64,000 bases of DNA from Rhodocyclaceae bacterium (GCA_044220545.1 JBGAQX010000024.1:1771-65770); one strand, 5' to 3'; positions 18,336-39,623 are shown, numbered from the stretch's first letter. Made by a program: numbers and translations. Notes: a model not told the origin generated them from the sequence alone.

Positions 18336-19007
18336 ATGAACAAGACCCGCCGAACCAAGGACCTGCTCTACGAACAGGTGGCGCGCATCGGCAAGGCGGC
18401 TTCGAGCCCGAAGCGGCTGGAGCTGATCGAGCTGCTCTGTCAGGGCGAAAAGACGGTGGAAACGCTGGCGCGCGAGGCGTCGATCAGCCTGAAGCTGGCC
18501 AGCGCGCACCTGCGCGAACTGCGCGCCGGCAACCTGGTCGAGACTGAGCGGCACGGCAAGCACATCGCCTATCGGCTGGCCGATCGGACGGTCGCCGACT
18601 TCTGGGTGTCGATCCGTTCGCTCGCCGAAGAACGCCTGGTCGAACTGCAACTGGCATTGCAGAAGATCGCCTCCGCGCCCAACGACCTGGTGCCCAGCGA
18701 CCGGGAGACGCTGATGAAGGCGGCCCGGCGTGGCGAGGTGGTGGTGCTCGACGTCCGGCCCACCGATGAATACCTGACCACCCACCTGCCCTTCGCCCGC
18801 TCGATTCCCATCGACGAACTGCGCCAGCGATTGGCCGAACTACCGAAGGACCGGCCGGTCGTCGCCTATTGCCGCGGCCCGTTCTGCCTGATGGCCAAGG
18901 ACGCGGTGGACCTGCTGCGCAAGGAGGGCTACTCGGCCGCGCACCTGCGCGACGGCGTCGCCGAATGGGGCATGGCGCCGGTCGCGGCGCGGATCAGCGG
19001 CGGCTGA
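18336..19007 (+). CDS. ArsR/SmtB-family transcriptional regulator fused to a rhodanese domain
   Basis: ArsR HTH (LELIELLCQGEKTVETLA...HLRELRAGNLV) followed by rhodanese (VLDVRPTDEY...AYCRGPFCLMA). Confidence 0.85.
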   Translation: MNKTRRTKDLLYEQVARIGKAASSPKRLELIELLCQGEKTVETLAREASISLKLASAHLRELRAGNLVETERHGKHIAYRLADRTVADFWVSIRSLAEERLVELQLALQKIASAPNDLVPSDRETLMKAARRGEVVVLDVRPTDEYLTTHLPFARSIPIDELRQRLAELPKDRPVVAYCRGPFCLMAKDAVDLLRKEGYSAAHLRDGVAEWGMAPVAARISGG

Positions 19008-19515
19008 CCGCCGCCAGGATGCCCCGCATCAACGCCAACGGCGTCGGCGGGCAGCCGGGGACGCGCACGTCGACGGCGACGACGTTCTCGACGGCGCCGC
19101 AGGTCGCGTAGTTTTCGCCGAACAACTGGCCGACCTCGCCGCAGCCGCAACCGCAGTCACCCACCGCGACCACCAGCTTGGGATCGGGCGTGCAGTCGTA
19201 GGCGATGCGCAGGGCGTTCTCCATGTTCTTGGTCACCGGGCCGGTGACCAGCAGCATGTCGGCATGGCGCGGGCTGGCGACGAACTTGATGCCGCGCCCT
19301 TCGAGGTTGTAGTAGGGATTGTTCAGGGCGTGGATTTCCAGCTCGCAGCCGTTGCAGGAACCGGCATCGACTTCGCGGATGGTCAGCGCCCGACCGAGAA
19401 TGGCGAGGATTTCGTCGTGGAGCAGGCCCATCTCGCGTTGCGGGCCTTCCTCGATGGCGACGGGACGCTCGGTGAGAATGCCGGTGCGCAGGATGCGCTT
19501 GAGCAGAGGAATCAT
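18994..19515 (-). CDS. NuoB/HycG/HyfI-type small subunit of a group-4-hydrogenase-like (Ehr) complex
   Basis: The four Cys of the proximal 4Fe-4S site are present (GSCNGCELE, GDCGCGCG, GCPPTP). Converges on and overlaps the ArsR gene 3' end by 14 nt. Confidence 0.9.
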   Translation of the reverse strand: MIPLLKRILRTGILTERPVAIEEGPQREMGLLHDEILAILGRALTIREVDAGSCNGCELEIHALNNPYYNLEGRGIKFVASPRHADMLLVTGPVTKNMENALRIAYDCTPDPKLVVAVGDCGCGCGEVGQLFGENYATCGAVENVVAVDVRVPGCPPTPLALMRGILAAVSRR

Positions 19516-19543
19516 GATTTCGAGCGCAGCGAGCCACGAGTTT

Positions 19544-19585: not shown

Positions 19586-21172
19586 TCACAGATCAACTCC
19601 ACTGTAGGAAAGGTTGAACGACTTGTTGATCAGCGGGAAATCCGGAACGATGTCGCTCAGCACGGCATGCTCCAGAGCCGGCCAGGCCTGCCACGAAGGA
19701 TCGTGCGGATGGGCGCGGGCGATGCGGCCCGCGTCGTCCAGTTGCAGCCCGACCACCACCTCGCCACGCCAGCCTTCGACGATGCCCAGCCCGCCGCCGC
19801 CGGGTGCTGGTGCCATTTCGACCCGCACCCCGCCCTGGGGCAGGCCGACCGCGATGACGCGCAACAGGCGCAAGGATTCGAATATCTCATCGAAGCGCAC
19901 CGCCACCCGTGCCGCGACGTCGCCGCGCTCGTCGGTGGCCGGCCGCACGCCGAGCGTCGCGTAAGGCGGCGGCGGCGTGTAGCCCTGGCGATAGCAGCGG
20001 CCATCGAGAATCATGCCGGTGGCGCGCGCCGCCATGCCGGTGAGCGACAGCTCCCGCGCCAGCTCGGTGCTGATCGGGCCGGTGGTCAGAAAGCGGTCCT
20101 GCAATCCGGGATGCTCGTCGTAGATCTTGCGCAACGCCTTGACCTCGCGACCGATCGCGTCGCACTGCTCGACGAGCCGGTCCAGCCCGGCCCGATCGAG
20201 ATCGAGGGCGACGCCGCCGGGGACGATGCGATCCATCATGAAGCGATGACCGAACAGCTCGGCGTTGAGGCGAACCCAGTCCTCCTTCAGGCGACTGAAC
20301 TGGGTGAGGCCAAAGCCGAAGGCGGCGTCGTTGCCCAGCATGCCGAGGTCGCCGAGATGGTTGGCGACCCGCTCGCGCTCGAGCATCAGCGCCCGCAAGG
20401 TGAACGCGCGCGGCGGCGGCGTCACGTCGCACGCCGCTTCGGCGGCCATCGCATAGGCCCAGGCGTAGGCGCAGGTGGAATCGCCCGAAACACGGCCGAC
20501 CAGCTTGCCGCCGGTCGCCAGGTCCTGGCCGATCAGGCGGCGCTCGACGCCCTTGTGCTGGTAGCCGAGGCGCTGTTCGAGGCGCAGCACCTTCTCGCCG
20601 ATCACCGAAAAGCGGAAGTGGCCTGGCTCGATGATGCCGGCATGAATGGGGCCGACCGGAATTTCATGCGCGCCTTCGCCACCGACCTGGACGAAGTCAT
20701 AGTCGCTGGGCAGGTTCGGGAAGCCGACACCGATGCCGACCTCATGCACGGCATCGTGGCGCAATGGATACCAGTCGGCCGGCCAGGCGCCGTGGCGCAG
20801 CCAGGGCCGTTGGTCGCCGCCGTCGGTGGCGATGCCGACCAGGTCGCGGGTGGTCCGCTGCATGCGGTTGGCGGCCGGGAAGATGCCGGCCAGATCGGGA
20901 TAGACGGGCTGCCCGGCACCAACGGCCGGCAGATCGAGGCCGAGCCAGGCATGGCCCTCGTCGAGGCCGAACACGCAATGCAAAACAAAGCCGCCGCCGC
21001 GCGATCGTTCGTCCGCACCCCACAGCGCGGCGAGGCGGCCGCCATGGCGATGGACGGAAACGGCGAAGCGCATCAGGTCTTCGCCGTCCGCCGCCCGGCC
21101 ATGCCAGACCGGCGCGCCGCAGCCGGCCTGACGGGTGAATTCGATGGGTTCGGCGTGGAACAGCATGGTCAT
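19586..21172 (-). CDS. Fused NuoC-NuoD / HycE-HyfG-type large subunit lacking all four [NiFe] cysteine ligands
   Basis: Conserved IPVGPIHAGIIEPGHFRF and LEQRLGYQHKG blocks. The L1 position reads RVSGDSTCAY instead of R.CG.C. The C-terminus reads NLSYSGVDL instead of DPC..C..R. Start at ATG 21172 or 21166 (GGAGG upstream); the track start 21193 is TTG. Confidence 0.9.
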   Translation of the reverse strand: MTMLFHAEPIEFTRQAGCGAPVWHGRAADGEDLMRFAVSVHRHGGRLAALWGADERSRGGGFVLHCVFGLDEGHAWLGLDLPAVGAGQPVYPDLAGIFPAANRMQRTTRDLVGIATDGGDQRPWLRHGAWPADWYPLRHDAVHEVGIGVGFPNLPSDYDFVQVGGEGAHEIPVGPIHAGIIEPGHFRFSVIGEKVLRLEQRLGYQHKGVERRLIGQDLATGGKLVGRVSGDSTCAYAWAYAMAAEAACDVTPPPRAFTLRALMLERERVANHLGDLGMLGNDAAFGFGLTQFSRLKEDWVRLNAELFGHRFMMDRIVPGGVALDLDRAGLDRLVEQCDAIGREVKALRKIYDEHPGLQDRFLTTGPISTELARELSLTGMAARATGMILDGRCYRQGYTPPPPYATLGVRPATDERGDVAARVAVRFDEIFESLRLLRVIAVGLPQGGVRVEMAPAPGGGGLGIVEGWRGEVVVGLQLDDAGRIARAHPHDPSWQAWPALEHAVLSDIVPDFPLINKSFNLSYSGVDL

Positions 21173-21254: not shown

Positions 21255-22706
21255 TCAGCCGAGCATGCGCGCGGCTTCGTGGAACCAGCGCGTCAGATAG
21301 GGGGGAATCCAGAGCCCCAGCATCAGCACGATGGCCAGATGCAGGAACACCGGCAGGATGGCCGGGGCGTGCGGCAGCGGCTTGGCGTGCGTCTCGCCGA
21401 ACACCATCGGCTGCACCTTGCCGAAGATCTGCGCGAAGGCCACGCCCAGCGCCAGCAGCAGGATCGGCGTCGCCCACGGATAGTGCTTCATGGCGTGGGT
21501 GAGGATCATGAACTCGCTGGCGAAGACGCCGAACGGCGGCATGCCGAGGATGGCCAGGGTGCCGAGCATCAGGCCCCAGCCGATCACCGGGTTGATGCGG
21601 ATCAGGCCGCGGATGTCCGCCATCAGTTGCGTGCCGGTCTTCTGGGTGGCGTGGCCGACGGCGAAGAAGATCGCCGACTTGGTCAGCGAATGCATGGTCA
21701 TGTGCAGCAGGCCGGCGAAGTTGGCCACCGCGCCGCCCATGCCGAAGGCGAAGGTGATCAGGCCCATATGCTCGATGGACGAATAGGCGAACATTCGCTT
21801 GACGTCCTTCTGCCGACCGAGGAAGAAGGCCGCCATCAGCAGCGTCAGGAGGCCGAAGCCCATCATCAGGTTGCCGGCGAAATCGCTGTGGATCGCGCCG
21901 TCGGCCAGCACCTTGCAGCGCAGGATGGCGTAGAGCGCCACATTGAGCAGCAGGCCGGAGAGCACCGCCGAGACGGGCGTCGGACCTTCGGCGTGGGCGT
22001 CGGGCAGCCAGTTGTGCAGCGGCGCCAGACCGACCTTGGTGCCGTAGCCGACCAGCAGGAAGATGAAGGACAGCGCCATGATGGTCGGTTCCAACTGGCC
22101 CTTGACGTCGACCAGGTGCGTCCATAGCAGCGCGTTGCCGGTCTCGCCGAGCACGCGCTCGGCGGCGAAGTAGAGCAGGATGGTGCCGAACAGGGCCTGG
22201 GCGATGCCGACGCCGCAGAGGATGAAGTACTTCCAGGCCGCTTCCAGGCTGGCCGGGGTGCGGTAGAGCGAGACCAGCAGCACGGTGGTCAGCGTCGCCG
22301 CCTCCATGGCCACCCACAGGATGCCCAGGTTGTTGGTGGTCAGCGCCGCCAGCATGGTGAACATGAAGAGCTGGTACATGCTCTTGTAGAGCCGCAGGCG
22401 CGGCACGGTGAGCCGGCCGTGCGCCATTTCGTTCTTCATGTACGGGCCGGAGAAGATGCTGGTGGTCAGCCCGACGAAGGCCGTCAGCGTAACGAAGAAG
22501 ACGTTCATCGAGTCGATGAAGAACTGCTCGCCGAAGGCGAAGCGCGGCCCGCTGGTGACGATTTCGGCGGTCAGCAACGCCGAGGCGAGGAAGGTGCCCA
22601 GGCTGGCGATGATGTTGAGGTTGGGCGCCCAGGCGCGCTCGCCGACCACCGTCAGCAGCGCGCCGCTGACGAGGGGAATGGCCAGGAGGATGACGAAGAG
22701 ATCCAT
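21255..22706 (-). CDS. HyfF / NuoN-M-type antiporter-like membrane subunit
   Basis: Start at ATG 22706 (MDLFVILLAIPL). PF00361-like core GLAPLHNWLPDAHAEGPTPVSAVLSGLLLNVALY. The track ORF to 23483 is an out-of-frame extension. Confidence 0.9.
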   Translation of the reverse strand: MDLFVILLAIPLVSGALLTVVGERAWAPNLNIIASLGTFLASALLTAEIVTSGPRFAFGEQFFIDSMNVFFVTLTAFVGLTTSIFSGPYMKNEMAHGRLTVPRLRLYKSMYQLFMFTMLAALTTNNLGILWVAMEAATLTTVLLVSLYRTPASLEAAWKYFILCGVGIAQALFGTILLYFAAERVLGETGNALLWTHLVDVKGQLEPTIMALSFIFLLVGYGTKVGLAPLHNWLPDAHAEGPTPVSAVLSGLLLNVALYAILRCKVLADGAIHSDFAGNLMMGFGLLTLLMAAFFLGRQKDVKRMFAYSSIEHMGLITFAFGMGGAVANFAGLLHMTMHSLTKSAIFFAVGHATQKTGTQLMADIRGLIRINPVIGWGLMLGTLAILGMPPFGVFASEFMILTHAMKHYPWATPILLLALGVAFAQIFGKVQPMVFGETHAKPLPHAPAILPVFLHLAIVLMLGLWIPPYLTRWFHEAARMLG

Positions 22707-23371
22707 CAGCCGTCCTTGAGTTTTTCCATGTGGCGGATGTCCAGACTGTCGAACTGCTCGCGAATCTGGAAGAAGAACACGCCGAGGATGATGGCGCCGA
22801 CCAGCACGTCGAGCGCGATGCCCAGCTCGACGACCATGGGCATGCCGTAGGTGGCGCTGGTGGCGGCGAGGAACAGGCCGTTTTCCATGGACAGGAAGCC
22901 GACCACCTGCGGAATCGCCTTGGTGCGGGTGATCATCATCAGGAAGGCGAGCATGACCACCGCCAGGGCGATGCCCAGCGTGCCGCGGCTGATGGTCTGC
23001 GACAGCAGCGAGATCGGCTGGGCGACGTTGAAGGCGATGATGACCAGGACCAAACCGACCAGCATGGTGGTCGGCACATTGACCAGCGACTCCAGATCCC
23101 ACTTGACGTAGAGGCGCCGCACCAGCCGGTGCAGGATCCAGGGCAGCAGCAGCGCCTTGAGCAGCAGGGTCAGGCCCGCCGACCAGTAGAGGTGGCTTTG
23201 ATGGGTGGTCACCGCCACCACCAGCGTCGACAGGCACAGCACCAGGCCCTGGAGGGCGAACAGGTTGATCAGCGGCATGACCCGCCGCTGCGCCAGCATG
23301 GCGAAGGCCAGCAGCAGGATGATCGAGGCGCAGAGGTTGATCAACTGCGCGGACAGGGGGACGTCGGTCAT
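22706..23371 (-). CDS. HyfE-type (NuoK-related) small membrane subunit
   Basis: 221 aa with about 7 TM segments, positioned between the NuoH-like and HyfF-like genes as in hyf operons. Start and stop overlaps on both sides. Confidence 0.8.
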   Translation of the reverse strand: MTDVPLSAQLINLCASIILLLAFAMLAQRRVMPLINLFALQGLVLCLSTLVVAVTTHQSHLYWSAGLTLLLKALLLPWILHRLVRRLYVKWDLESLVNVPTTMLVGLVLVIIAFNVAQPISLLSQTISRGTLGIALAVVMLAFLMMITRTKAIPQVVGFLSMENGLFLAATSATYGMPMVVELGIALDVLVGAIILGVFFFQIREQFDSLDIRHMEKLKDG

Positions 23372-24324
23372 ACCCGGGTTTCCAGCAGCAGGCGCACCAG
23401 CAGTCCGAGCACCGCCAGCAGGAAGGCGGTGCCGAGGAATTCCGGGGCGCGGAAGATGCGCATCTTGGCGTTGACCGTTTCAATCAGCGCCAGTACGAAG
23501 CCGCCGATCGCCAGCTTGACCACCAGCAGCGGAATCGCCGCCAGCAGGGCCAGGAAGTTGTCGCGCTCGGCGATGCCCCAGGGGAAGAACAGGGCCAGGC
23601 CGAGACAGGAATAGGCATAGAGCTTGAGGCTGGCCGCCCACTCGATCAGCGCCAGGTGGCGACCCGAGTATTCGAGGATCATCGCCTCGTGGATCATGGT
23701 CAGCTCGAGGTGGGTGGCCGGATTGTCCACCGGAACGCGGGCATTCTCGGCCAGCGAGACCATGGTGAAGGCGATGCCCGCGAAGGCCAGGCTCGGGTAG
23801 ATGATGAAGTCGCGGTGCGCCAGGGTCTCGACGATGGTGGCCACCGAGGTCGATTGCGAGATCATCGCCGTGGTGAAGATCACCATCAGCAGCGCCGGTT
23901 CGGCGAGGAAGCCGACCAGCATCTCGCGCCGGCCGCCCAGGGTGCCGAAGGAAGTGCCGATGTCCATGGCCGCCAGCGAGATGAAGATGCGCGCCAGGCC
24001 GAACACGCCGACCAGGGCGATGGTGTCGGCCGCCGGCGCGAGCGGCAGGTCGGTCGACAGGCTGGGAATGATGGCGCAGGCGAGCAGCATGCAGCCGAAC
24101 ACCACGAAGGGCGCGGTACGGAACAGCGACGAGGCGCCCTCGGCCAGCACCACGTCCTTGTTGAACAGCTTGCGCAGCATGTAATAGGGTTGCAGGAGCG
24201 GCGGCGCGGTGCGGCTCTGCAACCAGGCGCGGCACTGGCCGACCCAGCCGGCGAGCAGCGGCGCCAGCAGCAGGGCCAGCGCGATGGCGAAGAGTTGCCC
24301 CAACAGCCCGGCAACACTGATCAT
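23368..24324 (-). CDS. HyfC/HycD/NuoH-type membrane subunit
   Basis: Start at ATG 24324 (ATGA overlap with the upstream stop). Contains NuoH-like VPVDNPATHLELTMIHEAMILEYSGR. Confidence 0.9.
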   Translation of the reverse strand: MISVAGLLGQLFAIALALLLAPLLAGWVGQCRAWLQSRTAPPLLQPYYMLRKLFNKDVVLAEGASSLFRTAPFVVFGCMLLACAIIPSLSTDLPLAPAADTIALVGVFGLARIFISLAAMDIGTSFGTLGGRREMLVGFLAEPALLMVIFTTAMISQSTSVATIVETLAHRDFIIYPSLAFAGIAFTMVSLAENARVPVDNPATHLELTMIHEAMILEYSGRHLALIEWAASLKLYAYSCLGLALFFPWGIAERDNFLALLAAIPLLVVKLAIGGFVLALIETVNAKMRIFRAPEFLGTAFLLAVLGLLVRLLLETRV

Positions 24325-26339
24325 GGGCGGGCCACCATCAGAAGAACGATCAAGGTCACGAAGCTGTAGAGCAGGTAGATCGCGATGCGGCCGCCCTGCA
24401 CGCCGACGATCAGGCCGGACAGCCATTCCACCAGGCGCGCCACCGGCAGATAGAGCCAGTGCCAGAAATGATCCTCGACCTTGACGCTGTAGTAGGGCTT
24501 CTCGTCGCGAATGGTCGGGAAATGGCGCTCCATGCGGAACATCGGCTCGAAGATGCGCCGGATCGGCTGGCTGAAGCCCTCGGCGGTATCCTGGGCGCGC
24601 GGCCCCTGGAAGAAGTAGCCGCAGTCCCAGGCCGGCGAACGGCGCAGGCGGCCGTGGTAGAAGCGGCGCACCAGCCAGCGGCCGAGCAGCACCGAGGCGA
24701 TGATCACGGCCAGGAACACCAGCGGCTGGTAGCTGGCGCGGTCGGGCGAAATCGGCGCGAGCATCGCCCAGCCATGCTCGCGGACCTTGTCGGCCAGGCC
24801 GGCGCCCAGCAACTGCCGGGTGGTGGCGTCGATGACGCCGATCACCGTCGAAGGCAGCACCCCGAGCAACAAGGTCAACAGGGCCAGCCAGACCAGACCG
24901 ACCCGCTCCCAGGGGCCGGCGTCACGGGCGCCCTGGAGCGCCGGCTCGCGCATCTGGCCGAGAAAGACGATGCCGTAGAACTTGACCATGGCGAAGCCGG
25001 CCAGCGCCGCCACCAGGGCAATGACGGCGGCGGCCACCGGCACCACCATGTTGAGCCAGGAATGCGGCAGCCCCGGCGAGAACAGGAAGGCTTGCAGCAA
25101 CAGCCACTCCGAGACGAAACCGGACAGCGGTGGCAGGCCGGCGCTGGCGATGACGCCGGCCAGGGCCAGCCAGGCCACCCAGGGCATGCGATGGATCAGC
25201 CCGCCCAGCTTGCCCAGGCCGCGCTCGTGGGTGGCGTGGAGCACCGAGCCGGTGCACAGGAACAGCAGGCTCTTGAAGCCGGCATGGGCCAGGCAATGGT
25301 AGAGCACCGCCGTCATGGCCAGCGCCGCCAGCGCCTCCATGCGGTAGGCATGGAAGATCAAGGCCAGGCCGATGCCGACGGCCAGCAGGCCGATGTTCTC
25401 GATCGAGGAATAGGCGAGCAGTCGCTTCATGTCGCTCTGCACGGTACTGTAGAGCACGCCGAACAGCGCCGTCACCAGGCCGACGGCCAGCGCCACCACG
25501 CCCCACCACCAGAGCGGCGTGCCGACCAGATCGAAGCTCACCCGCAGCAGGCCGTAGATGGCCGTCTTGAGCATGACGCCGCTCATCATCGCCGACACCG
25601 GCGAGGGCGCCGCCGGATGCGCCTCGGGCAGCCAGACATGCACCGGCACCAGGCCCGCCTTGGCGCCGAAGCCGACCAGCGCCAGCAGGTAGGCGATCGA
25701 GGCCCAGAACGGCGACAGTTGTTGGGCGCGCATGCCGGCGAAGGTGTAGTCGCCAATTCCGCCCTGGCCGCCGGTCATGACGCCGAAGGAAAGCAGGATG
25801 GCGATGGCGCCGACGTGGGCGATCAGCAGGTAGAGATAGCCGGCGCGGCGGATCGCCTCGTGGCGATGATCGGTGGTGACCAGGAAGAATGACGACAGCG
25901 CCATGCTTTCCCAGGCGACCATGAAGGCGTAGGCGTCGTCGGCCAGCAAGACCATCAGCATGCTGGTCAGGAAGACGTGGTATTCGAGGCACAGCAGTCC
26001 GGGCGCCGTGCCCTCGCCCTGCCGGAAGTAGCCGGCGGCGTAGATGGAAATGCCCACCGAGACGAAGCCGAGCAGCAGCGCGAAGACGGCGGTCAGGGCG
26101 TCGAGCCGCAGGTGGAAGGGCAGCGTCGGCAAGCCGATGGCCAGCACCGCGGTTTCCGGCGGCCTGCCGAGATAACCGAGCGCGGTCAGGCCGATCATCA
26201 AGCCGATCAGCGCGCCGAGCGGGAAAAGCACCTTGCTGATGAAGCGCGTGTTGCGCGGCGCCGCCAGGCCCGCCAGGCCGATCGCCAGCCAGGCGCAGGC
26301 GGCAATCAGCAGGCTATCGATGGGCAGGAGGTTGGGCAT
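24321..26339 (-). CDS. HyfB / NuoL-type large antiporter-like membrane subunit
   Basis: 672 aa. PF00361-like core VPVHVWLPEAHPAAPSPVSAMMSGVMLKTAIYG. First gene of the six-gene block. Confidence 0.9.
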   Translation of the reverse strand: MPNLLPIDSLLIAACAWLAIGLAGLAAPRNTRFISKVLFPLGALIGLMIGLTALGYLGRPPETAVLAIGLPTLPFHLRLDALTAVFALLLGFVSVGISIYAAGYFRQGEGTAPGLLCLEYHVFLTSMLMVLLADDAYAFMVAWESMALSSFFLVTTDHRHEAIRRAGYLYLLIAHVGAIAILLSFGVMTGGQGGIGDYTFAGMRAQQLSPFWASIAYLLALVGFGAKAGLVPVHVWLPEAHPAAPSPVSAMMSGVMLKTAIYGLLRVSFDLVGTPLWWWGVVALAVGLVTALFGVLYSTVQSDMKRLLAYSSIENIGLLAVGIGLALIFHAYRMEALAALAMTAVLYHCLAHAGFKSLLFLCTGSVLHATHERGLGKLGGLIHRMPWVAWLALAGVIASAGLPPLSGFVSEWLLLQAFLFSPGLPHSWLNMVVPVAAAVIALVAALAGFAMVKFYGIVFLGQMREPALQGARDAGPWERVGLVWLALLTLLLGVLPSTVIGVIDATTRQLLGAGLADKVREHGWAMLAPISPDRASYQPLVFLAVIIASVLLGRWLVRRFYHGRLRRSPAWDCGYFFQGPRAQDTAEGFSQPIRRIFEPMFRMERHFPTIRDEKPYYSVKVEDHFWHWLYLPVARLVEWLSGLIVGVQGGRIAIYLLYSFVTLIVLLMVARP

Positions 26340-26451
26340 GGCGATCAGGAAACGCGAAGACCGATTCTAGCAGCGACACCACCGATCGACCGAGCCGCCG
26401 TCGATGCCAGATGGCGGAGGGCGGGCGTCGATTCCAGCCGCGGCGGCACCG

Positions 26452-26931
26452 CTAATCGGAATCCTTCGGCTTGCGCTGGAAGTCCAGCAACTTGTTGGCG
26501 AAGTATCGGTCGCCAAGCTCCGGGTCGATCGGATTGCCCTTCATATCGACCAGGGGCAGATTGAATTCGTTCCAGCCCCGCAGCCCGGTCTTCAGCGAGG
26601 TAACGTGCTGGTAGCCCATGCGTGCCAGCGTATGCGCGGCGAACACACTGCGACTGCCGGATCGGCAGACGACGACGATCTGCCGATCGCGCGCCTTGAC
26701 CAGCTCCGGCTCCGTCTCCTCGTGGTCCCATTCCACGGCTGTTTCCAGGATGCCACGCGGCACGTGTAGCGAGTTCTCGATGCGCATCGTGTCGTATTCC
26801 TGGTTCTCCCTGACATCCAGGAACAGGAGGTCGTCCCCGCTCTTCAATCTCTTCTCGACATCCCATGGAAAACACTCGTGGACCTCCGGCAGGATTTCCG
26901 CCACCAGGTCCTTGTAAGTCACTCGTTTCAT
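26452..26931 (-). CDS. Rhodanese-like domain protein directly upstream of the hydrogenase-like operon
   Basis: LFLDVRENQEY...VVVCRSGSRS active-site loop (CRSGSRS). Start taken at ATG 26931 (MKRVTYKDL). Confidence 0.8.
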   Translation of the reverse strand: MKRVTYKDLVAEILPEVHECFPWDVEKRLKSGDDLLFLDVRENQEYDTMRIENSLHVPRGILETAVEWDHEETEPELVKARDRQIVVVCRSGSRSVFAAHTLARMGYQHVTSLKTGLRGWNEFNLPLVDMKGNPIDPELGDRYFANKLLDFQRKPKDSD

Positions 26932-27180: not shown

Positions 27181-27504
27181 TCAGGCGAGTGACTTCAATC
27201 CGTACTTTTCGACGACAGCAAGCATCTTCAGTGCGATGCCGCTTGGTTGCTTTGCTCCAGCTTCCCACTTCTGCACGGTAGATTCGCTGATATTCAGCAT
27301 CCTGGCAAAAACGGGCTGGCTCACGTGATTCTCCTCACGAATGCGCCGAATCCGCGCCGCCGTCAGGTTGGGAAGCTTGGCCTGGCACGCCACATCAAAT
27401 TCGCGCAGAGTTGTCTTGCTAATGGCGCCGACCTTGAATAGGGCTTTCGCCGAGCCGTGAATGGACTCAAAGGCGTCGCTCTTAAACTTTGGCTTTGTTG
27501 TCAT
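27181..27504 (-). CDS. XRE-family HTH antitoxin (HigA/NadS-like)
   Basis: C-terminal HTH HVSQPVFARMLNISESTVQKWEAG. Paired with the upstream toxin gene by a 23-nt overlap. Region has visibly lower G+C. Confidence 0.8.
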   Translation of the reverse strand: MTTKPKFKSDAFESIHGSAKALFKVGAISKTTLREFDVACQAKLPNLTAARIRRIREENHVSQPVFARMLNISESTVQKWEAGAKQPSGIALKMLAVVEKYGLKSLA

Positions 27505-27853: not shown

Positions 27854-28183
27854 ATTATCACCATGAATGATGGTAGCACCCAGTGCTACTGTTTTCAATT
27901 CCTTTCCCGCGAGAGCCAAAACATCATCGTGCCACCCAAACAATTGGAGAGCCAACCCAAAATGAAATGTGACGGCAACCGTCCGGTGCTGGCCGAATGC
28001 GGTAGTTCAGGTTGTTCGCCTCGGCAGGCCGTTCAGGTCCAGCAAGAGTCGATCACCCATTGATCCGCGACAGGTTCATCTATCGACAGCAGCCAGTCAC
28101 GGCAGCGAGGCCCCGCAGCCCCGCCCAAGTTGACTGCCACCATCCGTTCCCGGCTCACCCCCGGCGACGATGCGTTCCGGATA

Positions 28184-32705: not shown

Positions 32706-35700
32706 GCCGCGCTCGCCTCCAGCGGTCTTTCGAGCAGCACCGGCGGCAGCGGCTCGCGCTCCCCGGCGAACCAGTCGGCCGACTGCCTGACGGTCTTCAC
32801 CTCGACCGGGCCCGACCAGGGTGCCCAGCCGCTGGCGGGATCGAACTGGTGGATGGCGCCGGTTTCCGGATCTTTTGCCGCGACGATCACCCAGCCGTTG
32901 CCGACCAGTTCCTGCAACGGTGGCTGGCGCTGGTAGACGGCGGTGATGATGTCGAGCGTCTGCTCGATCACCACCAGCAGGCGCATCGCCTCGTGGATCT
33001 CGATCATCTGTTTGGGCAGGCCGGTGCGCAAATCCGAACCGGCGCCCTGCATGACGCCGAAGTAGCCGGCGACGTTGTGCATGATCTTGCTGCCGCAGCC
33101 GAAGGCTTCGTTGTTCACCGTCGAGAAGAAATACTCGAGGTTGATGCCGGCGCCGACCGCGCCGTTGATCAGCAGGTGCCGTTCGAGCACCTTGCCTTCC
33201 GGGTCCTGGGTCGGATCGTAGGAGATCAGGAAGGCGCGCCGGTCGAAGTAGGCGCCGCGACTAATGGCGCGGCGACCGAAGAAGGCGCAGGCGTTGGTGA
33301 CGTGGCCGAGTTCCGGGCGCGGCTGCGAGAAGTCGTTGCGGCGCCCCCAGACGTGGGCCAGCGCGCCGTCCTTGCCGATGGACAGCGGCGCCGAATAGAG
33401 GCGGCGGCAGCGTTCCTGGGCATGGGCGCCAGCGGCCTCGGCCAGCGCGCGATCCACTTCGGCGACGGCGCCCCGCAGCGACGCCGGCACGTCCTCGGCG
33501 TCGTACCAGGTGATGAGGTCGTCGGCGGTGTTGTGTTCGCCGGCGAGGAACCACGTCGATTCGGGCACGGCGATGCCGCGCTCCCTGATCAGCGCGCGCA
33601 CCTCGGGGCGGTTGGCCATGGCGCAGAACAGTCGCGCGTTGGGGCCGGAGTGGCGGCCCGAGCAGGCGCCGCAATCGTAGGCCGCCATGTGCGGATTGTT
33701 GGTGCTGTTGGAGCCGTGGCCCATGATCACCACCAGCGGCGCGAAGTCCCTGGTCAGGCCGAGGTTGGTGAGGAAGCCGGCGATGCGCTCGGCCTGCTCG
33801 GCGTCGGTAAAGCCCTGGCGCGGCTGCTCGGGCGTCGCCGGCGCCGCCGGGTCGGCGGCGTTGAGGTCCAGCCGCGTCGGCACCGCCAGCTCGAAGCCGC
33901 GCCGCAGCGCGGTGTTGAGGCTGCCGAGCGCGGCCGGCGCCAGCGAGCGCAGCAGCAGCGTGGCCAGCGCGACCGGCGCCGCCAGCGCGGTGAGCAGCGT
34001 GCCGGCGGCGATGTCGCGGCGCGTGACCTGATGGAGGCCATCCTGCCAGCGCAGGCGGCGCGCATTGCGGCGACGGTGCTCGGCCGCCGTCGCCTCGGCG
34101 CCGGCTCTCGGCACCTCATGCACGTCGTGCGAGGGCACGATCACCGTCGGCACCACCGGGCACAACGCGGTCGGCTCGCGGTCGTCGAGGCCGTAGTAGT
34201 TCTGGAACACGGCGAAGTGCGCGGCGCCGCCAAGCGTTTCGAGCCGGGGATTCACTTCCTCAAGGTGGCGGCGCATGCCCTCCTCGCGATCGTCCATGCA
34301 GAACACCAGTTGAGCCAGCGGCCCCTGCCGGTGGCCCCGCCAGCGCCCGTGATTGGCCGTCAGGCCGGCGAAGATCTGCTGCCGATAGTGGCGTTCGTAG
34401 GCGTTGAGCCAGAGAAAGCCGCGCTGGTGCTCGTCGAGTTCGGCCAGACAGGCGAGCAGCGCTTCGGCGCCGGGGCGGCCCAGGGCGCGCAGCTCGCCAC
34501 CGGGAATGCCGAGGTGCTGGGCGAGCAGGAACAATGGCCACGCCGAGCGCGTCAGTCCGTGGCTGGCGGTCTGCTCGGCACCGGGCGCGTTGCGCCAGTT
34601 CTCGATGTGGCCGGCCAGCCATTGCCAGCGGTCGTCCGACCGCCCCAGGGCCGTATCGCCGGGTGCCGGCAGGTGCGGCTCGATCAGGTCGAGCAGCCAC
34701 TCCGGCAGCCCGTCGGCCCCGCCGTCGCCACGTTCGCCAGCGCCGCCGCTGGCGTGGCGCACCCAGAGCTCGGCCGGGTGGCGGGCGAAGTAGCCACCCA
34801 GCGCCGCCAGGTTCGCCTCGACGCCCCAGTGACGGCGGGTGATGTCCGTTGCGACCAGGCGCTCAAGCACCAGGCGCACCGCGAGGTAATCCATCATCGC
34901 CACCGGCACGTCCGATGTGCCGGCATAGCCAGGGTGGTTGTGGCGCCACAGGAACATGCCCGACCAGCCAGGCAGTTCCAGCGCCAGGCGTTCGAGATAG
35001 CCCGGCCAGCGTTGTTCCGGCAGGCCCAGCCGCGTCAGTTCGGCGACCACGGCGTCGAGGGCATTCTCGGGCAAGGCCGCCACTTGCTGACGCGCCTCGG
35101 GCAGCGTATCGAGCAGCCAGGCGATGTCCCGCGCCACGCTCCGCCGCCAGGCGGTGTAGAAGCCGAGCGGCCGCGCCGGGTTGTGCCAGGGCGCCAGGCC
35201 CTGGTCGAGATGACCAGCCAGGTGGCGCAGCAGCGCCGGCCGTACCGCTTCGAGGGCATCCTCCTCGGTCAACACCTTGAGCAGCGCGCCCAGGGTAGTG
35301 GAACAACCAAGCTGCCCGACCAGTTCGTCCCACAGGGCGGCGGCACGCACCGCCAGCGCCGGATGCGCATCGCCGGCCGCGCCATAGCCCTCCTCCGCCT
35401 CGCGGGTCGACAGCTCGAGCAGCTCCTCGGGATGACCGAAGCCATGATCGAGTCCGAGGACATCCAGGCAGGCGGCCCACAGTTCCCCAACCAGCCGCGG
35501 CTCGCCGTCGCCGCCGGCGAGCAAGCGCGTCCGGGCGGCGGGAGACAGGTCGTCCTGCCAGCGGCGCAGCGCCTGCTTCTCATCGATCTCCCATTTGAGC
35601 CGGGCCAGCGGAATCGGCGCCAAGGAGCGAACGAAACTGGCCCGAAGCACCTCGCGCCGACGCACCGGACCAAGCGCCGTGGTCGCCAGGACGGCCTCCG

Positions 35701-35998
35701 GATCCAGTTGCCAGGCGGCGGCCAGTTGCATCAGCGCGGCATCGAGGTCGCTGTCGTCGATGCGGCCGGCGCGATGGAACTCGCGCAGGCTGGCCTCGGG
35801 CAGCCAGGCGCGCGCGCCGGTCAGCCGGCTGGTGGCGGCCAGCGCCTCGGGAAAGGGCAGATGCTGAAAACCGTGCAGGGTGTTGTGATGCACGAAGTCG
35901 CGGATCGAGGCCTGGCTCGGCAACACGTGTTCCAGGTGATGCACGCAGTCGGCGAGGCGGTCGCGGATGTCGGTCGAACGATCTTCGTGGCCGCTCAC
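32702..35998 (-). CDS. dabA: DUF2309/UPF0753 protein (DabA-type putative vectorial carbonic anhydrase subunit)
   Basis: 1098 aa. N-terminal IRDFVHHNTLH. Putative Zn-site motifs QLVFCMDDRE (Cys codon 34298-34300), VIMGHGSNS and AYDCGACSGRHSGPNAR. GTG start 2 nt after the upstream stop. Confidence 0.85.
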   Translation of the reverse strand: MSGHEDRSTDIRDRLADCVHHLEHVLPSQASIRDFVHHNTLHGFQHLPFPEALAATSRLTGARAWLPEASLREFHRAGRIDDSDLDAALMQLAAAWQLDPEAVLATTALGPVRRREVLRASFVRSLAPIPLARLKWEIDEKQALRRWQDDLSPAARTRLLAGGDGEPRLVGELWAACLDVLGLDHGFGHPEELLELSTREAEEGYGAAGDAHPALAVRAAALWDELVGQLGCSTTLGALLKVLTEEDALEAVRPALLRHLAGHLDQGLAPWHNPARPLGFYTAWRRSVARDIAWLLDTLPEARQQVAALPENALDAVVAELTRLGLPEQRWPGYLERLALELPGWSGMFLWRHNHPGYAGTSDVPVAMMDYLAVRLVLERLVATDITRRHWGVEANLAALGGYFARHPAELWVRHASGGAGERGDGGADGLPEWLLDLIEPHLPAPGDTALGRSDDRWQWLAGHIENWRNAPGAEQTASHGLTRSAWPLFLLAQHLGIPGGELRALGRPGAEALLACLAELDEHQRGFLWLNAYERHYRQQIFAGLTANHGRWRGHRQGPLAQLVFCMDDREEGMRRHLEEVNPRLETLGGAAHFAVFQNYYGLDDREPTALCPVVPTVIVPSHDVHEVPRAGAEATAAEHRRRNARRLRWQDGLHQVTRRDIAAGTLLTALAAPVALATLLLRSLAPAALGSLNTALRRGFELAVPTRLDLNAADPAAPATPEQPRQGFTDAEQAERIAGFLTNLGLTRDFAPLVVIMGHGSNSTNNPHMAAYDCGACSGRHSGPNARLFCAMANRPEVRALIRERGIAVPESTWFLAGEHNTADDLITWYDAEDVPASLRGAVAEVDRALAEAAGAHAQERCRRLYSAPLSIGKDGALAHVWGRRNDFSQPRPELGHVTNACAFFGRRAISRGAYFDRRAFLISYDPTQDPEGKVLERHLLINGAVGAGINLEYFFSTVNNEAFGCGSKIMHNVAGYFGVMQGAGSDLRTGLPKQMIEIHEAMRLLVVIEQTLDIITAVYQRQPPLQELVGNGWVIVAAKDPETGAIHQFDPASGWAPWSGPVEVKTVRQSADWFAGEREPLPPVLLERPLEASAA

Positions 35999-36000
35999 GG

Positions 36001-37464
36001 TCAGCCCCCGAAAAACCGCGCCAGCCGGTCCACCGAGGCGCCGACCAGCGCCAGCGCCGGTGCCGGATGGAAGCCGACGGCAAGGATGGCCAGCGAGAGC
36101 ACGCCGGCGGCGGCCATCTCGTTTCGATCGAGATCGGCGACGGCGCGCATCTTGTCGCCCACCGGGCCGGTAAACAGGCGGCCCGCCGTGCGCAACGCGT
36201 AGGCCGCGCCGATCAGCAGGGACAGCGAGAGCAGCACCATCCAGCCGCCCCAGCGCTGGAAGCCGCCGACCATCGCATGCAGCTCGGCGATGAACCCGGC
36301 GGTGCCGGGCAGGCCGACGGTGGCGGTCAGGGCCAGGACCATGAAGAAGGCGAAGCGCGGCATGGTCCGCACCAGCGAGGAGTAATCGCCGATGTCGCGG
36401 GTACGGGTGCGCGCGTGGAGCAGCCCGACCAGCAGGAACAGCACGCCGGCAACCAGGCCGTGCGCCACCATCTGCATCACCGCGCCGGTCAGGCCCGCCG
36501 GGTTGAGGGTGGCCAGCCCGAGCAGCACCACGCCCATATGCGACACGGAAGCATAGGCCAGCATGACGATCAGATCGCGCTGGCGCCAGGCCAGAATGCC
36601 GCCGTGGAGCAAGGTGACGAAGGCCAGCACCGCCAGCCAGCCGTGCAGCGACCAGGCCGCGCCCGGCAGCGTCTCGATGGCGCGCAACAGGCCGTAGCCG
36701 CCCATCTTGAGCAGGATGCCGGAGGAGATCAGCGGCACGGCGCTCGGCGCCTCGGCATATACGAGCGGCGCCCAGCCATGCATGGGGAATACCGCCATCT
36801 TGACGCCGAAGCCGATGAACAGTCCGGCGAAGATCCAGACCTGGGTGGCGAGCGGCAGGCCGCGCGCCGCCGCGGCGATGGCGCTCATGTCGAAGCTGTG
36901 GGTGGGTACGGCGTCGTAGAGCAGCAGTAGCGCGATCAGCATGAACACCGAGCCGCCCATGGTGTAGAGCACGAAGTTGAGCGCCGCCTTCTGCCGCCGT
37001 TGGCGGTTCTGGCCGCCGAGGCGGTCGATCAGGAAGAAGAGCGGGATCAGCGTTAGTTCCCAGAAGACGTAGAACAGCGACCAGTCGCGGGCCATGAACA
37101 CGCCGAGCACGGCGGTTTCGAGCAACAGCAGCAGCGAAAAGTAGAGCTTGGCGCCCTTCGTGACGCCGCTCGAGGCGACCACGGCGACCGGCATCAAGAG
37201 CGTGGCCAGCAGCACCAGCGGGAAGGAAAAGCCGTCGACGCCCAGCGAGAAGCTCGAGCCGAGGCGCTCATGCCAGGCATGGGTCTCGTAGAGCTGGATG
37301 GCCGCCTGGGTCGGGTCGAATTGCCCCAGCAACGACCAGGCAAAAACCCCCACCAGGCAGGTGGCGGCCAGCGCCGTATGCCGCAGCAGCGCGAAATTGC
37401 GCGCCGGCAGCAAGGCCACGACCACGGCACCGAACAGGGGAAGAAGCAATAGGATGCGGAGCAT
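36001..37464 (-). CDS. NuoM/ND4-type antiporter-like subunit (first M-type gene of the DAB operon)
   Basis: Start at ATG 37464 (MLRILLLLPLFG). FYVFWELTLIPLFFLI and PMHGWAPLVYAEAPSAVPLISSGILLKMGGYG. The track ORF to 39654 is an alternative-frame extension through sulP. Confidence 0.9.
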   Translation of the reverse strand: MLRILLLLPLFGAVVVALLPARNFALLRHTALAATCLVGVFAWSLLGQFDPTQAAIQLYETHAWHERLGSSFSLGVDGFSFPLVLLATLLMPVAVVASSGVTKGAKLYFSLLLLLETAVLGVFMARDWSLFYVFWELTLIPLFFLIDRLGGQNRQRRQKAALNFVLYTMGGSVFMLIALLLLYDAVPTHSFDMSAIAAAARGLPLATQVWIFAGLFIGFGVKMAVFPMHGWAPLVYAEAPSAVPLISSGILLKMGGYGLLRAIETLPGAAWSLHGWLAVLAFVTLLHGGILAWRQRDLIVMLAYASVSHMGVVLLGLATLNPAGLTGAVMQMVAHGLVAGVLFLLVGLLHARTRTRDIGDYSSLVRTMPRFAFFMVLALTATVGLPGTAGFIAELHAMVGGFQRWGGWMVLLSLSLLIGAAYALRTAGRLFTGPVGDKMRAVADLDRNEMAAAGVLSLAILAVGFHPAPALALVGASVDRLARFFGG

Positions 37465-37502
37465 TTGGACAGGCTCGCCGGGGTTCGCGCGGGCTGCGTT
37501 GC

Positions 37503-39623
37503 CTATTTCTTCAGCAGGGTCGAGGCATGTTCCTTGCCAGCCGCCGACGCCGCCGCGTAGGCCGCCTCGATGGCTTGGTCGGCCGTGGCGAAGATATGCG
37601 GCCGGCCGACGTAATCGAACAGGCCGGTGGCGTGCATGACGTCGAGCACCTGTTTCTTCAGGCCGGAGAACATCACCGTAATGCCGCCGGCGCGCAGGCG
37701 TTCGACCAGGTGGTGCACCACTTCCTCGCCCGAGGCATCCAGCTCGTTGATGCCGTCGCCGACCACCAGCAGGTAGGAGACTTGCGGATTGGCGGCCACG
37801 GCTTCGAGGATGGCATCCTCGAAATAGGCAACGTTGGCGAAGTAGAGGCGACCGTCGAAACGCACGGCGACCACGACCTTCGATTCCGGCAGCTTGTTCA
37901 CCTTGACGTCGCGCAGCGTGCCATCGTGATAGCGGCCGAGGATGGCGACGCGCGGCGACATGGTGCGGTAGAGGTACAGACCGATGGCGAGGCCGGCGCC
38001 GACCATGATGCCCTTGTCGAGATGCGGCGCGAAAGCGAGCGTGGCGACGAAGGTGACGACGGAAGCGATGCCATCGTGCTTGTTGGCCTGCCAGGCATGC
38101 TTGATGGCGCCGAAATTGATCAGGCCGATCACCGCCATGATGATCACGGCGGCGAGCACCGCCTGCGGCAGGTGGTAGAGCAGCGGCGTCAGGAACAACA
38201 GGGTCAGCAGGACGAAGATTGCCGTGATGACCGAGGACATGCCGGTCTTGGCCCCGGCATTGATATTCACCGCCGAGCGCGAGAAGGAGCCCGACACCGG
38301 GAAGGACTGGGTCATGGCGCCGACGATGTTCGACAGGCCCTGGCCGATCAGCTCCTGGTTGGGGTCGATCTTGTCCTTGGTCTTGGCGGCGATGGCCTTG
38401 GCGATGGAGATGGCCTCCATGAAGCCCACCAGCGAGATGACGATGGCGGCGGAAAGCAGGCTGCCGATCATGTCCCAGGAAAACTTGGGAATGCCGATCG
38501 AGGGCAGGCCTTCGGGAATCTTGCCCACCACCTCGCCGCCGCCGGTGAGCTTGAGGCTGCCGCCGGTGGCCTTGGCGATGCGCCAGACGTTGCCGTCGGA
38601 ACTCGTCCCGGCCGGCAGTTTGCCCTGGGCGTAGAACCTGGCCGGCTGACCGTCGGCGCCAGCCACCTGTTCCAGGACAAAGCTGCGCACCGCGCGGTTG
38701 CGGCGGCGATTCTCGTCCTCGCGATCCTTGAGCTGGAGATTCAGCAACTCGATCTCGTAATGCAGCGTCGCAACGTCGTGCCCGACCTCGCCGCCGGCCT
38801 TTTGCAGCTTCTTCAACTCGCCGCTCTTGGCGGCGATCTGCTCGGCAAGCTCCCTGGCCCGCGCCTCGGTGCGGACGAACTCGGCCAGCAGGGTTTGCGC
38901 CTCCGGCTCGGCGATCTGCTCCAGCGTCGCCGTGGCGTTGCGCTCGAAGCCGATTTGCCAGGAAACGATCGTGGTCACGGCGACGGCGATCAGCACGCCC
39001 GGCAGTTTGGGCGCCTTCTTGCGAATGACCCACATGATGGCGATGGCCGCCACGCCCATGACCAGCGTCGGCAGGTGAGTGTCGCCGACCAGCTTGGCCA
39101 CGCCCCAGATGTCGTTGATGAAGGACTCGGAACGGCCCATGGGCACGCCGATGATCTTGTTGACCTGCGACAGGCCGATGATCATGGCCGCCGCGTTGGT
39201 GAAGCCGACGATGACCGGGTGGGAGAGGAAATTCACCACCACGCCGAGCTTGAATACACCCAGCGCCAACTGGACGATGCCGACCATCAGCGCCAGCATG
39301 ATCGCCAGGACGACGAACTGTTCGGAGCCCGGCGCGGCCAGCGGCGTCAACGACGAAGCCGTCAGGAGCGAGGCCACCGCTACCGGCCCGGTGCCAAGCT
39401 GATTGGAGGACCCCCACAGCGCCGCCACCGCCACCGGCAGGAAGGCGGCATAGAGGCCGTAGTACGGCGGCAGGCCGGCCAGTTGCGCGTAGGCCATCGA
39501 CTGCGGTACCAGCACCAGGGCCACCGTCAAGCCAGCGAGGAAGTCGGCGCGGAAGAGAGTCCCCGAATAGGGAAACCAGCGCAAAAAAGGCAGAAACCGT
39601 TGCAACAAGGGAGGGAGTGTCAT
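37503..39623 (-). CDS. SulP-family anion transporter with C-terminal STAS domain and an approximately 140-aa helical insertion
   Basis: N-terminal SulP signature GLTVALVLVPQSMAYAQLAGLPPYYGLY. STAS-like C-terminus. Charged coiled-coil-like segment about aa 226-365, between SWQIGFE and VVGKIPEGLP. Confidence 0.85.
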   Translation of the reverse strand: MTLPPLLQRFLPFLRWFPYSGTLFRADFLAGLTVALVLVPQSMAYAQLAGLPPYYGLYAAFLPVAVAALWGSSNQLGTGPVAVASLLTASSLTPLAAPGSEQFVVLAIMLALMVGIVQLALGVFKLGVVVNFLSHPVIVGFTNAAAMIIGLSQVNKIIGVPMGRSESFINDIWGVAKLVGDTHLPTLVMGVAAIAIMWVIRKKAPKLPGVLIAVAVTTIVSWQIGFERNATATLEQIAEPEAQTLLAEFVRTEARARELAEQIAAKSGELKKLQKAGGEVGHDVATLHYEIELLNLQLKDREDENRRRNRAVRSFVLEQVAGADGQPARFYAQGKLPAGTSSDGNVWRIAKATGGSLKLTGGGEVVGKIPEGLPSIGIPKFSWDMIGSLLSAAIVISLVGFMEAISIAKAIAAKTKDKIDPNQELIGQGLSNIVGAMTQSFPVSGSFSRSAVNINAGAKTGMSSVITAIFVLLTLLFLTPLLYHLPQAVLAAVIIMAVIGLINFGAIKHAWQANKHDGIASVVTFVATLAFAPHLDKGIMVGAGLAIGLYLYRTMSPRVAILGRYHDGTLRDVKVNKLPESKVVVAVRFDGRLYFANVAYFEDAILEAVAANPQVSYLLVVGDGINELDASGEEVVHHLVERLRAGGITVMFSGLKKQVLDVMHATGLFDYVGRPHIFATADQAIEAAYAAASAAGKEHASTLLKK

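Follow-up and report, generated by a model that had tools for sequence, protein, structure and literature searches.

Two membrane machines, a DabA cluster and an Ehr operon, as probable modular neighbours of one SulP transporter in a Rhodocyclaceae bacterium

Results

The 64-kb stretch of DNA analysed here, hereafter the window, comes from a Rhodocyclaceae bacterium (GCA_044220545.1, JBGAQX010000024.1:1771-65770) and carries two gene clusters for membrane complexes that follow one another on the minus strand: a five-gene cluster around the carbonic-anhydrase-like protein DabA, which we call DAB5, and an operon for an Ehr (Ech/energy-converting-hydrogenase-related) complex. Our gene map, compiled from an open reading frame (ORF) listing and profile searches, agrees with an earlier note on this sequence, according to which all 12 genes from sulP to a NuoB-like gene share one strand and are interrupted only by a rhodanese gene and a toxin-antitoxin (TA) islet of low G+C content. 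The profile matches likewise bear out the content described there, namely a Q-module-like pair, a NuoH-like subunit, six antiporter-like subunits, DabA and SulP, and confirm the small membrane gene called NuoK-like, which by profile is HyfE-like. From this arrangement the note had drawn two alternatives, a redox- or ion-driven CO2-hydrating supercomplex of both systems or two independent machines whose adjacency is fortuitous. Positions given below are counted from the first letter of the window, and genes lie on the minus strand unless stated otherwise.

The first of the 12 genes (37503-39623) encodes a SulP/SLC26-family anion transporter with a STAS domain, here termed SulP-D (PF00916, 358 bits; PF01740). 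Its score lies above the cut-off for TIGR00815 (427 against 380 bits) and below that of the BicA equivalog model (137 against 880 bits), so that it is to be regarded as a member of the SulP family and not as a BicA equivalog; the closest solved structure is AtSULTR4;1 (E=1.6e-99). DAB5 follows as a block in which neighbouring genes abut or overlap by a few bases. It runs from a NuoM-like antiporter-like subunit, 'DabB1' (36001-37470, with a probable ATG start at 37464; PF00361, 208 bits; TIGR01972, 434 bits), through a long DabA of 1098 residues, the predicted β-carbonic-anhydrase-like catalytic subunit (32702-35998; PF10070, 761 bits), a truncated NuoL-like protein of 514 residues, 'AplL', which is the counterpart of DabB (31161-32705; PF00662 and PF00361), and the divergent NuoM-like 'AplM1' (29656-31161; PF00361, 113 bits), to the NuoM-like 'AplM2' (28184-29656; PF00361, 191 bits; TIGR01972, 443 bits).

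The PF10070 match of DabA spans the entire model (positions 1-747 of 747), and an exact-sequence look-up with the protein gave no match. Residues C567-x-D569-x-R571, H761 and C776 do not vary among 14 homologues, and the CxDxR and HGS...NNPH...DCGAC segments align with those of Halothiobacillus neapolitanus DabA2 (PDB 9rd0; E=1.5e-68); judged by these alignments, the β-carbonic-anhydrase zinc site is intact. The start of AplL overlaps the stop of dabA, and AplL lies directly downstream of DabA in all loci that we inspected. NuoL models cover it only at positions ~6-360 of 615-630, as befits a partner without the long lateral helix, and its score of 153 bits against TIGR01960 (ndhF3_CO2; cut-off 589) sets it apart from the NdhF3 type. 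In one small alignment of the six antiporter-like paralogues of the window, HyfB, HyfF and AplM2 retain the Glu of transmembrane helix (TM) 5, the Lys of TM7 and the Glu of TM12, with the canonical TM5/7/8/12 charges all present in HyfB, and 'DabB1' has Ile for the TM8 Lys. AplM1 shows Arg for Lys in TM7 and TM8, Val for Glu in TM12 and a displaced TM5 Glu, and is probably a structural subunit. These charge losses recall the non-pumping DabC of DAB1 (10.64898/2026.05.01.722082), a likeness that is only suggestive because the alignment is small.

The Ehr operon comprises six genes, for a HyfB-like antiporter-like subunit of the NuoL type with a long C-terminus (24321-26339; NF005086, 887 bits, cut-off 667), a NuoH/HyfC-like subunit (longest ORF 23368-24426; PF00146, 121 bits), a HyfE-like small membrane subunit (22706-23371; NF008556, 96 bits and thus below the cut-off of 136, its position being kept in all Ehr loci), a HyfF-like antiporter-like subunit (21255-22709, residues 262-742 of a long ORF; NF005045, 849 bits, cut-off 543), a NuoC-NuoD fusion resembling the HycE/HyfG large subunit (19586-21172; PF00329 and PF00346) and a NuoB/HyfI-like small subunit (18994-19515; PF01058, 93.6 bits). 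The NuoH/HyfC-like protein probably starts near 24324, as its homologues have 314-318 residues (gene calls in loci L164, L167 and L169-L172 of the surveys described below). The operon ends at the NuoB-like gene, because a convergent plus-strand gene for an ArsR-family helix-turn-helix (HTH) protein fused to a rhodanese domain (18300-19007) overlaps its end.

The earlier note had called this complex nickel-less, rightly so: at the positions of the four [NiFe] cysteines of Escherichia coli HycE, NuoC-D has Ser, Ser, Ser and Gly (CGIC to SGDS; CysC to SysG), that is, all four ligands of the group-4 hydrogenase L1 RxCGxC and L2 DPCxxC motifs are replaced. The quinone ligands of complex I are changed as well (Nqo4, 2fug_4: His38 to Ser, Tyr87 to Phe), and the profile searches found neither a NuoI/HyfH-like dicluster ferredoxin subunit nor NuoA, J, E, F or G among the six genes. 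The NuoB-like protein retains four cysteines for one [4Fe-4S] cluster (CNGC...GDCGC...GCPP), and the closest solved structure to NuoC-D is HycE of the formate hydrogenlyase (7z0s; E=1.3e-51). Given the lost nickel and quinone ligands and the absence of NuoI/HyfH among these genes, the complex is not a hydrogenase, nor is it a standard quinone reductase. It combines the features by which Ehr is recognised, homologues of the group-4 large and small subunits, a NuoH-like subunit, two PF00361 proteins and the loss of the Ni-Fe cysteines, and is probably a complex-I/hydrogenase-4-like module with a predicted ion-translocating function. Assignment of the locus to NDH-1MS, to true complex I or to the group-4 hydrogenases was considered and rejected, as the defining features of these systems are missing.

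How regularly do the two systems occur together? A DabA-centred scan, based on a long-DabA alignment with one genome per species, yielded 80 loci with flanks of at most 10 kb, which were mapped by tblastn with the window proteins; an Ehr-centred scan searched metagenome contigs with NuoC-D (more than 8000 homologues), and 80 loci were kept. Many survey loci are on metagenome-assembled genomes (MAGs) or metagenome contigs, and the trees mentioned below are neighbour-joining sketches. DAB5 has the same order and orientation in every locus of the 80-species scan that is long enough to judge, with 'DabB1' kept upstream of DabA in nearly all of the 80, and is carried by Rhodocyclaceae, Sulfuricellaceae, Thiobacillaceae, Nitrosospira, Accumulibacter, methanotrophs, Chromatiaceae, Thiodiazotropha and Magnetococcales. 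The orthologous SulP precedes it in 21 of the 68 loci with enough upstream DNA. Ehr lies within 10 kb of DAB5 in just three species, L004 (DabA 94% identical, layout as in the window), L009 (82%) and L015 (54%, with Ehr upstream of DAB5), and none of the 80 Ehr-centred loci on metagenome contigs contains DAB5. Thus, the co-localisation that the note had put forward as a check turns up no general pairing, and an obligatory DAB5-Ehr partnership is excluded because of these counts.

Individual look-ups of homologues added two direct DAB5-to-Ehr junctions (L164 and L167) and relatives with OmpA or other genes in the place of Ehr (L166, L168 and L002). The cases in which Ehr follows DAB5 all fall within one DabA clade, and adjacency arose at least twice, in different gene orders. 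By a rough estimate of our own, two given operons should be same-strand neighbours by chance in ~3e-4 of genomes, or in at most ~0.03 cases among ~85 genomes; set against the two independent junction types seen, the adjacency is not random.

Two DAB loci stand out in other ways. In a Thiothrix MAG (L076, 8562-23159) the cluster is partly duplicated in tandem, in the order NuoM-like, DabA, NuoL-like, second DabA, NuoL-like, NuoM-like, NuoM-like, the second DabA being 38% identical to that of the window. In a gammaproteobacterial MAG (L168, 18883-19959) a gene two places downstream of DAB5 gives a weak match to CsoSCA_cat, the catalytic domain of the carboxysomal carbonic anhydrase.

In the Rhodocyclaceae-type lineage, a divergent cobalamin-adenosyltransferase gene (CobAT) and SulP form a constant frame, behind which three layouts are found: SulP-DAB5-Ehr (window, L004, L009, L164, L167), SulP-Ehr (L086, L093, L096, L097, L100, L104 and, by recount, L084) and SulP-DAB5 followed by OmpA or another gene (L005, L006, L008, L166, L168). 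The Ehr most similar to that of the window is found in L096, a locus without DAB5 (HyfB 90%, HyfE 94%, HyfF 96% and NuoCD 85% identical), so that the Ehr proteins show no adaptation to a DAB neighbour. Both systems keep their full sets of subunits regardless of the partner, and the DAB subunits have equal lengths with and without Ehr.

Ehr furthermore carries a conserved sequence of its own. In the window, an extended -10-like motif, TGCTAGAAT (26364-26372), lies ~25 nt 5' of the hyfB ATG, the one occurrence of TGnTAGAAT in the 64 kb against 0.19 expected. Most Ehr loci of the close clade, among them the window, L004, L009 and L167, have a TGnTAGAAT-like motif 25-35 nt 5' of the hyfB start, and keep it whether AplM2, SulP, rhodanese or another gene lies upstream, although the rest of the spacer has diverged. 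Because the motif is conserved while upstream gene and spacer vary, this argues for Ehr as a transcription unit of its own with a putative promoter at this site. Scans for intrinsic terminators, made between DAB and Ehr as well as on L015, yielded no excess of sites over shuffled sequence and are uninformative on transcript boundaries.

Between the last DAB gene and hyfB, the window contains a RelE-family toxin gene (27482-27955; PF06296, 121 bits), an Xre-type HTH antitoxin gene (27181-27504; PF01381, 35 bits) and a gene for a single-domain rhodanese (26452-26931; PF00581, 62.6 bits). The RelE/HTH islet, with a G+C content of 0.51-0.57, lies in a trough of 0.51-0.59, compared with 0.65-0.72 in the surroundings. 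In L009, L164 and L167 only 70-85 nt (84 nt in L009) separate the last DAB gene from hyfB, with neither a TA pair nor rhodanese, and in L004 (the same as L001, the 94%-identical relative) an unrelated HigB-type TA pair occupies the same interval between the last DAB gene and rhodanese (17969-18653). The suspicion that the islet was inserted secondarily is thereby substantiated, because it is missing from three relatives and a different pair takes its place in the fourth. Rhodanese is shared only by L004, in a 96% identical copy. With RelE/HTH in the window, HigB in L004 and nothing in three relatives, the site looks like a hot spot of TA insertion.

The conserved neighbour of both systems is SulP-D, whose orthologues preceding DAB5 or Ehr are 67-89% identical to that of the window. 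The gene immediately before hyfB is SulP in seven of 11 close-clade loci and in all four L015-like loci, as against none of 18 from other clades. A rough neighbour-joining tree of NuoC-D does not place the two SulP-linked Ehr clades as sisters. A pair of a HisKA and a σ54-dependent regulator gene accompanies SulP in both SulP-DAB5 and SulP-Ehr loci. A second, larger SulP paralogue of ~860 residues, fused to a universal-stress-protein (Usp) domain, recurs in opposite orientation at a few kb on the upstream side of SulP-DAB5, frequently next to genes for a two-component system (L002 1-2428, L164 1-1021, L166 1-1752, L168 1473-4061).

The second SulP-linked Ehr clade includes L015, an 88.6-kb contig (JACRAU010000028.1) of a Sulfuritortus-like MAG, on which the C-terminus of SulP is followed by a γ-carbonic anhydrase (γ-CA), the six Ehr genes, DAB5 and Methyltransf_32. 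The methyltransferase gene is 82% identical to the one following DAB5 in Sulfuritortus. The possibility that the STAS fragment at the start belongs to a second, unrelated SulP was considered and rejected, as comparison with the SulP that accompanies DAB in S. calidifontis (81% identity) shows the fragment to be its orthologue. The γ-CA is of the Cam/CcmM type, with scores below the cut-offs of both models (NF053794, 123 bits; NF040597, 113 bits), and its translation, read against Cam, has the three zinc histidines. Gaps of 37 nt between γ-CA and Ehr and 70 nt between Ehr and DAB5, without a TAGAAT motif, make this arrangement look like a single SulP-γ-CA-Ehr-DAB5 operon, the one fused case that a search along the lines of the note brought up. 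The arrangement, as assembled, is recent, since the nearest DabA relative (L165, 94%) has plain SulP-DAB5. The nearest Ehr relatives (82-84%) have SulP-Ehr (L170, L171, L172) or SulP-γ-CA-Ehr (L169) and no DAB5, with SulP proteins 69-78% identical to that of the window. Homologues of the γ-CA also occur upstream of SulP-DAB5 (L011, L012, L013, L035, L038). A literature search, confined to one searchable library, found no paper linking Ehr to SulP, γ-CA or DabA clusters.

When the genes that flank the 80 Ehr loci were clustered, no conserved partner that could donate electrons emerged, and neither formate dehydrogenase nor NuoE/F was seen. The only recurrent neighbours are DsrE-like genes, metG and SulP, each restricted to certain clades: metG lies directly upstream of hyfB in a more distant clade (L107, L125, L131, L135, L137, L149), and a DsrE-family gene (~166 residues), the commonest downstream neighbour, is near Ehr in 13 loci and convergent just downstream of nuoB in 12, among 53 with at least 1.5 kb beyond NuoB. 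Several contigs hold a pair of paralogous Ehr operons, only ~44-63% identical, which are separated by no more than a few kb and arranged in tandem, divergently or convergently (L169 14915-18037, L161 3-4493, L103 3501-6456, L108 12004-13632).

Beyond the NuoB-like gene of the window, the ArsR-rhodanese gene is divergent from a DsrE-family gene (17865-18245, minus strand), which is followed by a methyltransferase gene (region 17239-19007). A Methyloversatilis MAG that has no Ehr carries the same pair (72% and 63% identical) at ~4 kb on the downstream side of DAB5 (L010, 15677-16781); the pair probably represents a sulfur-sensing regulon. A 168-residue minus-strand ORF at 18279-18785, which gave a tblastn match in L010, was rejected as a gene, being the antisense frame of the plus-strand ArsR-rhodanese gene. 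Further off, the window contains a cluster of DUF2202, an unassigned 121-residue ORF, DUF1924 and a dihaem cytochrome c (45626-47695), adjoining an OmpR-type two-component system (43003-45119) that is itself conserved in synteny in L004 (93-96% identical). In the left flank, a further gene of the toxin type, whose product ends in a HipA-like kinase domain (12867-14126), lies near a hybrid histidine kinase/receiver gene (11947-12834).

Discussion

What can be concluded from this comparison about the relationship between DAB5 and Ehr? The survey counts, the three layouts at one locus and the conserved motif of Ehr argue for two autonomous membrane machines, which share a modular neighbourhood around a single SulP orthologue; therefore we favour, with moderate confidence, a reading in which Ehr may take part in the same inorganic-carbon or anion-uptake physiology without binding DabA. 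Of the alternatives in the earlier note, the co-directional neighbourhood stands and a shared context is plausible, but the distribution of the genes argues against an obligatory DabA-Ehr supercomplex. DAB5, Ehr and γ-CA fit the role of interchangeable additions to a SulP hub, and the recurrent linkage of Ehr to the same SulP, sometimes with γ-CA, suggests from its genomic context a role in inorganic-carbon, anion or pH physiology.

In such a scenario, and by analogy with DAB1 and DAB2, DabA would hydrate CO2 that has diffused into the cell, and ion flow through its truncated NuoL-like DabB partner would make the hydration one-way, the three extra NuoM-like subunits presumably enlarging the membrane part. 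SulP would move an anion, most likely bicarbonate to judge from its neighbours. Ehr, probably transcribed from its own extended -10 promoter, may make or balance the ion gradient that SulP and DAB consume, for which no binding of DabA would be needed. The two systems of the window would then be neighbours by descent, at a locus where either DAB5 or Ehr can be missing.

Several observations weigh against this reading. Ehr genes lying further than 10 kb from DAB5, or elsewhere in the genome, fall outside our counts, and L015 is represented by a single MAG contig. The proposed Ehr promoter is a conserved match to a consensus, and in L009, L164 and L167 the junctions, co-directional and only 70-85 nt long, leave room for read-through and would also fit a co-assembled complex. 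By score, SulP is much closer to plant sulfate transporters than to BicA, and a connection of the locus with autotrophy finds no backing in the 64-kb window, which contains neither RuBisCO nor carboxysome genes.

Of the other readings, the one that best withstands the evidence, unlikely though we consider it, is that there is no functional link at all: DAB5 and Ehr would stand side by side through inherited synteny in one Rhodocyclaceae lineage and one chance rearrangement, and the SulP-Ehr layout would be what DAB5 deletions left behind. Adjacency is indeed rare overall, the order DAB5-to-Ehr is confined to one DabA clade, deletion from an ancestral SulP-DAB5-Ehr layout would fit a frame in which DAB5 is either cleanly present or cleanly absent, and Ehr operons of other clades stand beside unrelated genes such as metG. 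However, SulP-Ehr also occurs in a second, non-sister clade whose sampled relatives lack DAB5 (L169-L172), Ehr lies inside a SulP-γ-CA...DAB5 cluster in L015, and the two junction types seen exceed the rough chance expectation. Moreover, a hyfBCEFG cluster lies beside a β-carbonic anhydrase in Acidithiobacillus caldus (PMC3826726).

A bolder version of the functional link, which we regard as doubtful, would make betaproteobacterial Ehr complexes dedicated energy-coupling partners of a module for acquiring inorganic carbon, made up of SulP-D with or without γ-CA and DAB5; where Ehr and DAB5 are encoded together, most clearly in L015 and possibly in the window, they would assemble a complex-I-like, redox- or ion-driven CO2-hydrating machine with an evolutionary origin independent of NDH-1MS. 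Slightly less probable still is a physical supercomplex, a DabA-based counterpart of cyanobacterial NDH-1MS, in which the DAB antiporter-like subunits would dock onto the membrane arm of Ehr and DabA would hydrate CO2 at the expense of redox turnover or ion flow in Ehr. In its favour, homology between the antiporter-like subunits of DAB and Ehr would in principle permit lateral packing, the two systems came to lie side by side in two gene orders, with short co-directional junctions in three relatives and an apparent single operon in L015, and NDH-1MS sets a precedent (10.64898/2026.05.01.722082). Yet 77 of 80 species have no Ehr within 10 kb of DAB5 and all 80 Ehr loci lack DAB5; subunit sets and lengths are the same with and without the partner, Ehr has its own promoter-like motif, and the window tolerates a TA islet and a rhodanese gene between the two systems. 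Nor do DAB1 and DAB2 need a redox partner (10.1101/476713), and neither a CupA-like adaptor nor an NdhF3-type AplL is encoded, a Pfam search of the 15 proteins between 18994 and 39623 having found no match to the CupA/CupB (ChpX/Y) family. A DabA-Ehr supercomplex is possible where the genes are fused, but is not demanded by their distribution.

It is equally improbable, in our estimate, that the locus serves sulfur metabolism, with SulP carrying a sulfur oxyanion, Ehr acting as an MBS- or Mbx-like oxidoreductase of sulfane or sulfur compounds and DAB5 as a passenger: nickel-less MBS reduces polysulfide, in the window and L004 the gene immediately preceding hyfB encodes a rhodanese, NuoB is closely followed by an ArsR-rhodanese regulator and DsrE, the latter family being the commonest downstream neighbour of Ehr, and SulP is closest to sulfate transporters, but this reading is weakened because rhodanese is missing from L009, L164 and L167, as it is from the SulP-Ehr loci, and because the same SulP orthologue regularly partners DabA clusters and Cam/CcmM-type γ-CA; Ehr also lacks the extra subunits of MBS.

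Ehr complexes are known but uncharacterised, and earlier proposals for their function lean on formate dehydrogenase neighbours (PMC7894505, PMC6349859). One SulP orthologue as conserved neighbour in two non-sister clades, the same that is a standard partner of multi-subunit DabA clusters and of γ-CA, provides a lead toward inorganic-carbon, anion or pH physiology, which could be followed in cultivable relatives such as Thiobacillus, Sulfuritalea and Sulfuritortus. The five-gene DAB variant, known from genes alone, is itself widespread, with 80 species in Beta- and Gammaproteobacteria and Magnetococcales. Were the supercomplex real, evolution would have arrived at a complex-I-coupled CO2 pump a second time, independently.

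Comparison with known systems

DAB5 is most readily compared with DAB1 and DAB2 of Halothiobacillus neapolitanus and Thermocrinis albus, which hydrate CO2 in a one-way, redox-independent reaction coupled to the proton-motive force (10.1101/476713; 10.64898/2026.03.13.711513; 10.64898/2026.05.01.722082). Shared features are a PF10070 DabA with the CxDxR motif, the H...C zinc residues and NNP...DCGAC, a truncated NuoL-like partner encoded beside it and, in DAB1, the length of DabA. The window differs in three extra full-length NuoM-like subunits, which replace or add to the half-size DabC, where the known DAB structures hold only one or one-and-a-half membrane subunits; moreover, its operon is led by a SulP gene, its similarity to DabA2 is only about E=1e-68, and the system is known here through its genes. 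The neighbourhood of SulP, NuoM, YbcC and NuoL was first noted in 2017 as 'clade C' of the COGNAT analysis (PMC5700660), where ybcC (DabA) stands upstream of a nuoL homologue in the company of COG0659 SulP and COG1008 NuoM, as in the window and in the 80-species set; that paper predates the discovery of DabA function and does not mention Ehr or γ-CA neighbours.

With the cyanobacterial NDH-1MS and NDH-1MS' complexes (NdhD3/F3/CupA and NdhD4/F4/CupB) the locus shares the concept of a CO2-hydrating protein on complex-I-related antiporter-like subunits; however, the Ehr core is not NDH-1, and the gene distribution does not require an association of the CO2 module with it. E. coli Hyc/Hyf provides the closest solved large subunit, HycE, and HyfB and HyfF of the window score above the NCBIfam equivalog cut-offs, but all four [NiFe] cysteines, the HyfA/H ferredoxin-like proteins, HyfD and the formate dehydrogenase genes of that system are missing. 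In plants and algae, γ-carbonic-anhydrase subunits occur in mitochondrial complex I. The likeness to the γ-CA gene directly upstream of Ehr in L015 and L169 is one of adjacency, and the window itself has no γ-CA gene.

Ehr complexes have also been described from other bacteria. That of Geobacter sulfurreducens, GSU0739-45, likewise combines group-4 homologues without Ni-Fe ligands with NuoH-like, HyfE-like and antiporter-like subunits (PMC7894505, PMC6349859). The window represents a six-gene betaproteobacterial type, in which NuoC and NuoD are fused, a NuoI/HyfH-like ferredoxin subunit is lacking and the linkage is to SulP, γ-CA or DAB genes instead of formate dehydrogenase.

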